31,776 nucleotides of DNA from Escherichia coli. Its GTDB lineage: Bacteria; Pseudomonadota; Gammaproteobacteria; Enterobacterales; Enterobacteriaceae. The stretch lies in assembly GCF_003334355.1 (NCBI RefSeq), contig NZ_QOWP01000037.1, one strand, 5' to 3'. This document shows, one piece after another, positions 25,607 to 27,808 of the stretch (the first letter of the stretch is position 1; every line of letters starts with the position of its first letter). The notes under the pieces were generated by a model, which saw only the letters and a list, made by a program, of their open reading frames with translations, was not told the DNA's origin and did not search any database. The position numbers and the translations under genes were made by a program.

Positions 25607-25796
25607 TTTTAGCGACATTATTTTGTTAGCCGGAGATGGCGTTCAGACCAGATCCGGCAACATTATCCCACGCATGGTCAGCAAACTGACATTATCTCTC
25701 CGCCCTGGCAGGCATCAGAAAATCGCTCATACTTTAATCGGTAAACAGCACCTTTAGATGCTGTTTTCGATACACAATTTCAATCAAGGAGTCATT

Positions 25797-26129
25797 ATGG
25801 CTGGTTGGTTTGAACTCAGTAAGAGCAGTGATAATCAGTTCCGGTTTGTGCTAAAAGCGGGCAATGGTGAGACTATCCTCACCAGCGAGCTTTATACCTC
25901 AAAAGCCTCTGCGGAAAAGGGCATCGCGTCGGTGCGTAGCAACAGCCCGCAAGAAGAACGCTATGAGAAAAAAACGGCAAGTAACGGCAAATTCTATTTC
26001 AATCTGAAAGCCGCTAATCATCAAATTATCGGCTCCAGCCAGATGTACGCCACCGCGCAATCTCGTGAAACCGGAATTGCCTCCGTTAAAGCCAATGGCA
26101 CAAGCCAGACGGTGAAAGACAATACGTAA
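25797..26129 (+). CDS. yegP: YegP (UPF0339 / tandem DUF1508 repeats)
   Basis: Track ORF 25758..26129; the start at 25797 gives 110 aa (MAGWFELSKSS...) with an SD (aaggag) 7 nt upstream. Two internal repeats of ~50 aa are visible. Confidence 0.8.
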   Translation: MAGWFELSKSSDNQFRFVLKAGNGETILTSELYTSKASAEKGIASVRSNSPQEERYEKKTASNGKFYFNLKAANHQIIGSSQMYATAQSRETGIASVKANGTSQTVKDNT

Positions 26130-26275
26130 TTACGATGCCGGGCGTGGGTTGTTGGCGTCCGGCGCTTTACCAGATCCCCCCACAGCGCTACAATGCCCGC
26201 CCTTAAAGTGGGGGCACTCCCCTAACCGCTTCATCAGGTGAAGCGGATCTGACCTGTCATCAGAACGAGAGAATT

Positions 26276-27714: not shown

Positions 27715-27721
27715 CCGTTTC

Positions 27722-27808
27722 GCTGAAAAACATAACCCATAAAATGCTAGCTGTACCAGGAACCACCTCCTTAGCCTGTGTAATCTCCCTTACACGGGCT
27801 TATTTTTT
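27722..27808 (+). ncRNA. cyaR: CyaR (RyeE) Hfq-dependent sRNA
   Basis: gctgaaaaacataacccataaaatgctagctgtaccaggaaccacctcctta...cttacacgggcttatttttt matches the CyaR sequence as I recall it, including the terminal hairpin plus U-tract. Confidence 0.85.

Follow-up and report, generated by a model that had tools for sequence, protein, structure and literature searches.

Escherichia coli YegP is an ancient tandem duplication of a DUF1508 module

Introduction

The closest known systems to the protein studied here are YegP of Escherichia coli K-12 (Protein Data Bank (PDB) entry 2K8E, solved by solution nuclear magnetic resonance (NMR) in 2008) and Shewanella SO_3888 (PDB 2K49). Their relatives HVO_2922 (6Q2Z), NMB1088 (3BID) and Atu0232 (2K7I) have one DUF1508 domain per chain and form non-covalent, strictly symmetric homodimers, whereas YegP is a single chain, already described as a fused dimer in a 2024 preprint (bioRxiv 10.1101/2024.11.21.623966). 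Tandem DUF1508 domains are also found in proteins of anti-phage systems. NsnA of the Menshen system carries an N-terminal tandem in the 'sensor' position, for which a PC4/Whirly-like topology has been proposed (PMC12065111). The ubiquitin-like (Ubl) proteins of Bub/Bil systems likewise begin with a DUF1508 tandem, and these fusions were monomeric by SEC-MALS, size-exclusion chromatography with multi-angle light scattering (bioRxiv 10.1101/2024.11.21.623966). In 57 loci, a yegP homologue lies downstream of capK/capS, which are DNA-damage regulators (PMC13373217). Here, we describe yegP in a 31,776-nucleotide stretch of an E. coli genome (assembly GCF_003334355.1, contig NZ_QOWP01000037.1; hereafter the window), including its internal repeat, the age of the duplication, its transcription and its putative ligand.

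The two-domain unit is what YegP has in common with NsnA and with the Ubl, HEPN and helix-turn-helix (HTH) fusions. Unlike the NsnA, Bub/Bil, HEPN and HTH proteins, which carry effectors or regulators, E. coli YegP stands alone, without an effector, outside a defence island and matched by no PADLOC model. The initial annotation called DUF1508 a domain of unknown function, in agreement with a 2026 EMBO J paper that refers to YegP as 'uncharacterized' (PMC13373217).

Results

These coordinates hold yegP, an ordinary and universally conserved core gene of E. coli, as an ATG-to-TAA open reading frame (ORF) of 110 codons whose product starts MAGWFELSKSS. The gene and its two repeats lie at the positions below.

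25797..26129, plus strand: yegP coding sequence (110 codons and TAA), YegP/UPF0339 family protein, placed by translation, identity to 2K8E and RefSeq annotation.
25786..25791, plus strand: Shine-Dalgarno sequence AAGGAG, 5 nt before the yegP ATG, invariant across E. coli, Enterobacter and Kluyvera.
25809..25955, plus strand: repeat 1 (residues 5-53), placed by self-alignment, Pfam (residues 11-57, nt 25827-25967) and an AlphaFold2 model (strands 4-9, 15-20 and 26-29, helix 36-49).
25962..26108, plus strand: repeat 2 (residues 56-104), placed by self-alignment, Pfam (residues 61-108, nt 25977-26120) and the AlphaFold2 model (strands 56-60, 66-71 and 77-80, helix 87-100).

The translation is identical to PDB chain 2K8E_A ('UPF0339 protein yegP') at 109 of 110 residues, the sole change being Ala37 here for Thr37 in 2K8E. 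A 901-bp stretch spanning the gene was matched in 5424 of 5426 complete E. coli genomes. In the RefSeq annotation of matching genomes the order is baeR, yegP ('YegP family protein') and yegQ/trhP, and the 100% DNA matches are yegP. Near-identity to K-12 and this gene order together identify the gene as the E. coli yegP orthologue. A longer ORF of 123 amino acids starting at 25758 was rejected; the sequence upstream of the Shine-Dalgarno element is not conserved in Enterobacter or Kluyvera, and this start is not credible because the Shine-Dalgarno element and the MAGW/MSGW start are kept across the three genera. The product is a 12-kDa cytoplasmic protein with an isoelectric point of 9.4 and no signal peptide. 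Thr37 of K-12 YegP is a reported phosphosite whose level was altered in a study of the YeaG kinase (PMC8055822). Codon 37 (25905-25907) encodes Ala in this strain, so the position cannot be phosphorylated here, and the fetched homologues show Ser, Ala or Gly at this residue; the phosphosite is therefore not conserved.

YegP consists of two copies of one module. The initial annotation proposed an internal tandem duplication of a ~50-residue, DUF1508-like unit, and both parts of this proposal are borne out by self-alignment and by two Pfam matches, the module recurring with a period of 51 residues. Local alignment of residues 1-55 with 56-110 (BLOSUM62) scored 91 over 49 ungapped columns with 19 identities. 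Shuffled halves scored 23.4 on average (standard deviation 4.6, maximum 51), so that the real score, with z = 14.7, was reached by 0 of 5000 shuffles and the self-alignment is clearly significant. Pfam calls DUF1508 (PF07411) twice in tandem, at residues 11-57 (E 9e-22) and 61-108 (E 1.3e-21), both matches running end to end on the model. The two segments singled out initially, at residues 15-49 (nt 25839-25943) and 66-100 (nt 25992-26096), had been said to align 'almost residue-for-residue', which overstates their likeness: they have 17 of 35 residues identical, 24 of 35 positive, and 57 of 105 bases (54%) in common. That the internal similarity arose by chance or by recent slippage has a negligible probability. 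Only the modest identity of 39-49% counts in its favour, and against it stand the shuffling result, the two independent Pfam matches, and a DNA identity of 54% with both domains separately conserved across orthologues.

Comparison across species placed the duplication far back in time. We assembled 28 two-domain orthologues (48-94% identical to the query) and split each into its N- and C-terminal domains. Mean identity was 55% among N-terminal domains, 54% among C-terminal domains, and 40% between the two kinds. For 55 of the 56 domains the nearest neighbour occupied the same position in a protein from a different species, which dates the duplication to before any of the sampled two-domain lineages diverged. 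As expected from a duplication of this age, no direct DNA repeat with ~153-nt spacing was found in yegP. A recent duplication was rejected, given the lack of a DNA repeat and the separate conservation of the domains. The halves of yegP thus stem from an ancient duplication-fusion, older than the divergence of all sampled two-domain orthologues.

An AlphaFold2 model of YegP, built with the 28 orthologues as input, reached a predicted local distance difference test (pLDDT) score of 92.5 and shows the order strand-strand-strand-helix twice, with each element offset by 51 residues. It superimposes on the NMR structure 2K8E with a template-modelling (TM) score of 0.95 and a root-mean-square deviation of 1.1 Å. 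YegP thus has the beta-beta-beta-alpha module of the solved family members, two of which pack as a dimer or, as here, a pseudo-dimer. The single-domain relatives were solved as homodimers, from which it follows that YegP is a fused dimer, and the pseudo-dimeric symmetry that structure prediction had been expected to reveal is present. The ancestral gene encoded a single-domain product acting as a homodimer, which duplication and fusion turned into a single-chain pseudo-dimer.

The family signature F-x-L-K-A-x-N ... S-x-x-Y ... G-I-x-S-V-x-x-N is found in each repeat. Among the 28 orthologues, the invariant or nearly invariant columns are F17, L19, A21, N23, L28, S30, Y33, G42, S45 and N49 in the first repeat and F68, L70, A72, N74, I78, G79, S81, Y84 and G93 in the second. 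Nine pairs are conserved in both (F17/F68, L19/L70, A21/A72, N23/N74, S30/S81, Y33/Y84, G42/G93, S45/S96 and N49/N100). On strand 2 these residues occupy alternating positions, and on the helix they give one face a row of small residues (a G-x-x-S motif). Being mostly core-facing on strand 2 or on one helix face, they probably determine fold and interface rather than form a catalytic site. YegP relatives comprise 3802 clusters at 50% identity (E ≤ 1e-3), and the PHROG family phrog_1422 matches YegP over its full length. The NCBIfam equivalog for HVO_2922 (NF041908), a related single-domain archaeal subfamily, gives YegP 56.5 bits, below its cutoff of 90.

The initial annotation placed yegP immediately downstream of the baeSR stress regulon. 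The position is correct: the two genes share a strand, and yegP begins 190 bp downstream of baeR. The implied regulatory link, however, is not supported, yegP having its own promoter and no BaeR box. The relevant elements are listed below.

25705..25733, plus strand: yegP promoter, −35 CTGGCA (25705-25710), 17-nt spacer, −10 CATACT (25728-25733), occurring once in the window.
25624..25662, plus strand: stable hairpin just 3' of the baeR stop, RNA fold of −29.2 kcal/mol in a 94-nt context, z −3.57, 0 of 200 shuffles as stable, without a U-tract.
14553..14570, plus strand: BaeR-box-like TTTTTCTCCCTTATTGGC upstream of mdtA, one mismatch to the consensus.
26137..26163, plus strand: GC-rich 9-bp hairpin followed by GCUUUACC, from RNA folding, 8 nt after the yegP stop; it failed the T-run rule of the terminator scan.

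The promoter CTGGCA-17-CATACT in the baeR-yegP spacer was reported by Shimada (2014) from genomic systematic evolution of ligands by exponential enrichment (SELEX) with RNA polymerase holoenzyme (PMC3946193). When E. coli, Enterobacter and Kluyvera were aligned, the −10 CATACT was invariant, the −35 nearly so, and the spacing was kept, the −10 region being TCATACT in E. coli and, in both other genera, CCATACT. We take this −10 region to resemble the sigma-S-type motif C-Y-A-T-A-C/A-T. Published transcriptomes agree on RpoS and stress: yegP had a wild-type/rpoS ratio of 185, among the 100 most RpoS-dependent genes of EDL933 (PMC2907692), rises in expression as cells enter stationary phase (PMC2241611), takes a hub position among genes that several stresses up-regulate (PMC9501238), and co-varies with Dps, OsmY, OtsB, ElaB and YeaG (PMC10734530).

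Could yegP nonetheless belong functionally to the mdtABCD-baeSR envelope-stress operon as its final gene, with most of its expression coming from baeR read-through? The shared strand and the 190-bp distance fit this idea, as does the order baeS-baeR-yegP-yegQ, which is kept in Enterobacter and Kluyvera. The terminator scan of the E. coli spacer also found no canonical intrinsic terminator, only a weak 5-bp hairpin, and since the hairpins there lack a U-tract terminator, minor baeR read-through into yegP may occur in E. coli; both points weigh against full independence of the gene. On the other side, the promoter mapped within the spacer is conserved, and in Enterobacter a canonical intrinsic terminator (10-bp stem, 6 GC pairs, T-rich tail) separates baeR from the yegP promoter. 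Scanning the window for the literature consensus of the BaeR box, with as many as 3 mismatches allowed, gave no site upstream of yegP; the only one, at 14553-14570, lies upstream of mdtA. From sequence, then, yegP appears to have neither the BaeR box nor the promoterless co-transcription that would place it in the BaeSR regulon or the mdtABCD-baeSR operon. Its top-100 RpoS dependence and its clustering with sigma-S genes, not with mdt or spy, point the same way, and close yegP homologues occur in unrelated contexts. We therefore consider membership of the envelope-stress operon very unlikely. The evidence favours yegP as a transcription unit of its own, driven by a conserved promoter and switched on by RpoS in stationary phase and general stress according to the published transcriptomes, and not by BaeR. 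Leaving the ligand aside, we place high confidence in the identity, anatomy, evolution and regulation of yegP, taken jointly, as set out here.

The DNA around the gene has further elements. The ~50-nt E. coli stretch holding the hairpin 25624-25662 has no counterpart in the aligned Enterobacter and Kluyvera sequences, and Enterobacter instead carries its canonical terminator at the equivalent place. The hairpin might act as a partial terminator or RNA-processing site, or be what is left of a repeat element. The hairpin at 26137-26163 is possibly a weak terminator of the yegP transcript. A hairpin in the 5' untranslated region (25737-25771) was rejected as a feature, its stability being like that of shuffled sequences (z −0.9) and its sequence not conserved, and an Rfam search of the spacers flanking yegP returned no structured RNA at E ≤ 1. 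Between yegP and yegQ/trhP, the promoter-like TTTACC-17-TACAAT (26166-26194, plus strand) has a conserved equivalent in Enterobacter and Kluyvera, which suggests that yegQ may also have its own promoter.

Many other proteins contain the two-domain unit. It lies N-terminal to a HEPN_RiboL-PSP (HEPN RNase) domain in P0253, C-terminal to an XRE-type HTH (HTH_3) in P0201, and ahead of an AKK/PKK-rich (Lys/Ala/Pro) tail in P0261, and the tryptophanyl-tRNA synthetase (TrpRS) family model PRK12284 contains a C-terminal DUF1508 segment. In these fusions (XRE HTH, HEPN RNase, NsnA, Ubl and TrpRS) the unit sits where sensor or partner-binding domains sit. Other proteins are long arrays: P0121, P0124, P0125, P0129, P0144 and others, of 1000-1560 amino acids, match the complete two-domain unit as many as 9 times. 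The cluster of P0126 is a further repeat array and includes a marine-eukaryote transcript (MMSP/MMETSP, source label 'mmetsp'). Relatives of extracytoplasmic type form another set.

P0167, P0186, P0222, P0225, P0235, P0242, P0243, P0247, P0267, P0258, P0229 and P0249: extracytoplasmic-type DUF1508 relatives, among them many four-domain proteins with a lipoprotein-type signal peptide at the N-terminus.

Within this set, P0249 has a membrane segment followed by a C-terminal segment that by eye is like the OmpA-type peptidoglycan-binding domain.

Genomic context was varied. Kosakonia sp. R1.Fl (GCA_023516815.1) carries a 79%-identical yegP copy outside the bae locus (L012:2501-2833), between an HTH_35 gene and a gene pair encoding a DNA methylase and a DUF4928 protein, in surroundings that look like a restriction-modification or defence islet. 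For YegP itself, defence-system membership was rejected: 0 families of the PADLOC-DB v2 defence models match it at E ≤ 1, and 3 of 50,697 phage records contain a match. At L002:6001-7968 the gene for the YegP-HEPN(RiboL-PSP) protein P0253 is followed 7 nt on by a Dus (tRNA-dihydrouridine synthase) gene. Together with yegP-trhP (tRNA U34 hydroxylase) and the TrpRS with DUF1508, this makes three loose associations with tRNA, which may be coincidence. Adjacency to tRNA enzymes as a clue to a partner was demoted to a low-probability lead, given that neighbours outside Enterobacteriaceae are unrelated.

Small RNA (sRNA) genes are the remaining features recorded in the window.

13556-13704, 13891-14033 and 14218-14360, plus strand: three tandem Sib antitoxin sRNA genes upstream of mdtA, full-length Rfam RF00113 matches of 140-144 bits each.
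27720-27805, plus strand: CyaR (RyeE) sRNA gene just downstream of yegQ/trhP, full-length Rfam match of 100.7 bits.

At the locus upstream of mdtA, K-12 has two Sib genes (SibA and SibB). Relative to K-12, an additional ibs/sib toxin-antitoxin repeat thus seems to be present in this strain.

Discussion

The fusion contexts, along with the homologues near capK/capS and the Kosakonia copy next to a DNA methylase gene, favour the view that YegP is a putative non-catalytic binding or sensor module. Induced by stress, it would act stoichiometrically rather than as an enzyme and may bind single-stranded or damaged nucleic acid or a partner bound to nucleic acid. Such nucleic acid, or a nucleic-acid-bound partner, is the leading, though tentative, candidate for the putative ligand; a protein partner is a somewhat doubtful one, and a small ligand an unlikely one. 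Hints at single-stranded nucleic-acid binding are indirect and come from the isoelectric point of 9.4 and from the HEPN, HTH, TrpRS and AKK-tail fusions. Of the 28 orthologues, 19 carry a positive net charge; being mild and not universal, this charge was rejected as evidence for nucleic-acid binding. Both the PC4/Whirly superfamily and YegP are dimers or pseudo-dimers of small units of beta-sheet plus helix, a resemblance proposed in the work on Menshen (PMC12065111). A further-reaching hypothesis is that sigma-S-induced YegP is the free form of a widespread sensor module for a signal derived from nucleic acid or DNA damage, a module elsewhere fused to HEPN, NsnA, Ubl or XRE domains or placed under CapK/CapS, and that its target in stationary-phase E. 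coli would be damaged or single-stranded nucleic acid, perhaps tRNA. As a whole, this chain of claims is a long shot.

Several observations weigh against the binding-module reading or its nucleic-acid ligand. Nine of the 28 orthologues are neutral or acidic. Lipoprotein-type signal peptides (...A/G-C-S/A...) occur on many relatives with four DUF1508 domains. The family thus has a large branch outside the cytoplasm, where the module is unlikely to meet nucleic acid as a ligand, which argues against a purely nucleic-acid-related role. In addition, a baseplate protein of a contractile injection system includes a YegP-like tandem module as a structural part. The lack of a PADLOC match counts on the same side, as does genomic context: outside Enterobacteriaceae no conserved neighbour genes were found, the neighbours being unrelated, and context thus names no partner. 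In the literature searched, no experimental function was found for any member of the DUF1508 family.

YegP might instead be a protein-protein adaptor or scaffold, a rigid self-complementary block that binds a protein partner or a stable spacer, unrelated to nucleic acid. In its favour, proteins of 500-1560 amino acids reiterate the unit, the largest count being at least 9; the unit also occurs in secreted lipoproteins and in a protein with an OmpA-like anchor, and is fused to ubiquitin-like beta-grasp proteins, and its conserved residues look structural, unlike a ligand site. Against a scaffold, YegP has no known partner and no conserved neighbour gene. The DUF1508-Ubl fusions are monomeric by SEC-MALS, and the module is therefore not driving higher oligomerisation. 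The HEPN, HTH and TrpRS fusions and the histone-like tail lean instead towards processes related to nucleic acids. We regard the adaptor as possible, though doubtful. A small-molecule or ion sensor or buffer, with one or two symmetric pockets for a metabolite or second messenger built from the conserved Asn, Ser and Tyr of both repeats, is improbable. It would explain why N23/N74, S30/S81, Y33/Y84, S45/S96 and N49/N100 are hydrogen-bonding rather than charged, and why the module takes the sensor position of HTH, HEPN and NsnA fusions. However, none of the five solved family entries, as named by their depositors, reports a ligand, so small a protein leaves little space for a pocket, and the Gly/Ser conservation of the helix is more simply explained by close packing.

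The tandem pseudo-dimer of YegP is already known from Pfam, from PDB 2K8E (2008) and from a preprint (bioRxiv 10.1101/2024.11.21.623966). As the tandem architecture, the pseudo-dimer and the RpoS dependence have all been published, the repeat in yegP is a correct and ordinary finding that adds nothing new. Its importance lies with the protein and the module. YegP is among the most strongly RpoS-dependent small proteins of E. coli and is still without a known biochemical activity, and the same module is now turning up in anti-phage systems, where it takes the sensor position (NsnA of Menshen, Ubl proteins of Bub/Bil and genes controlled by capK/capS). Because the module is common to several defence systems, the ligand of YegP would inform several of them at once.
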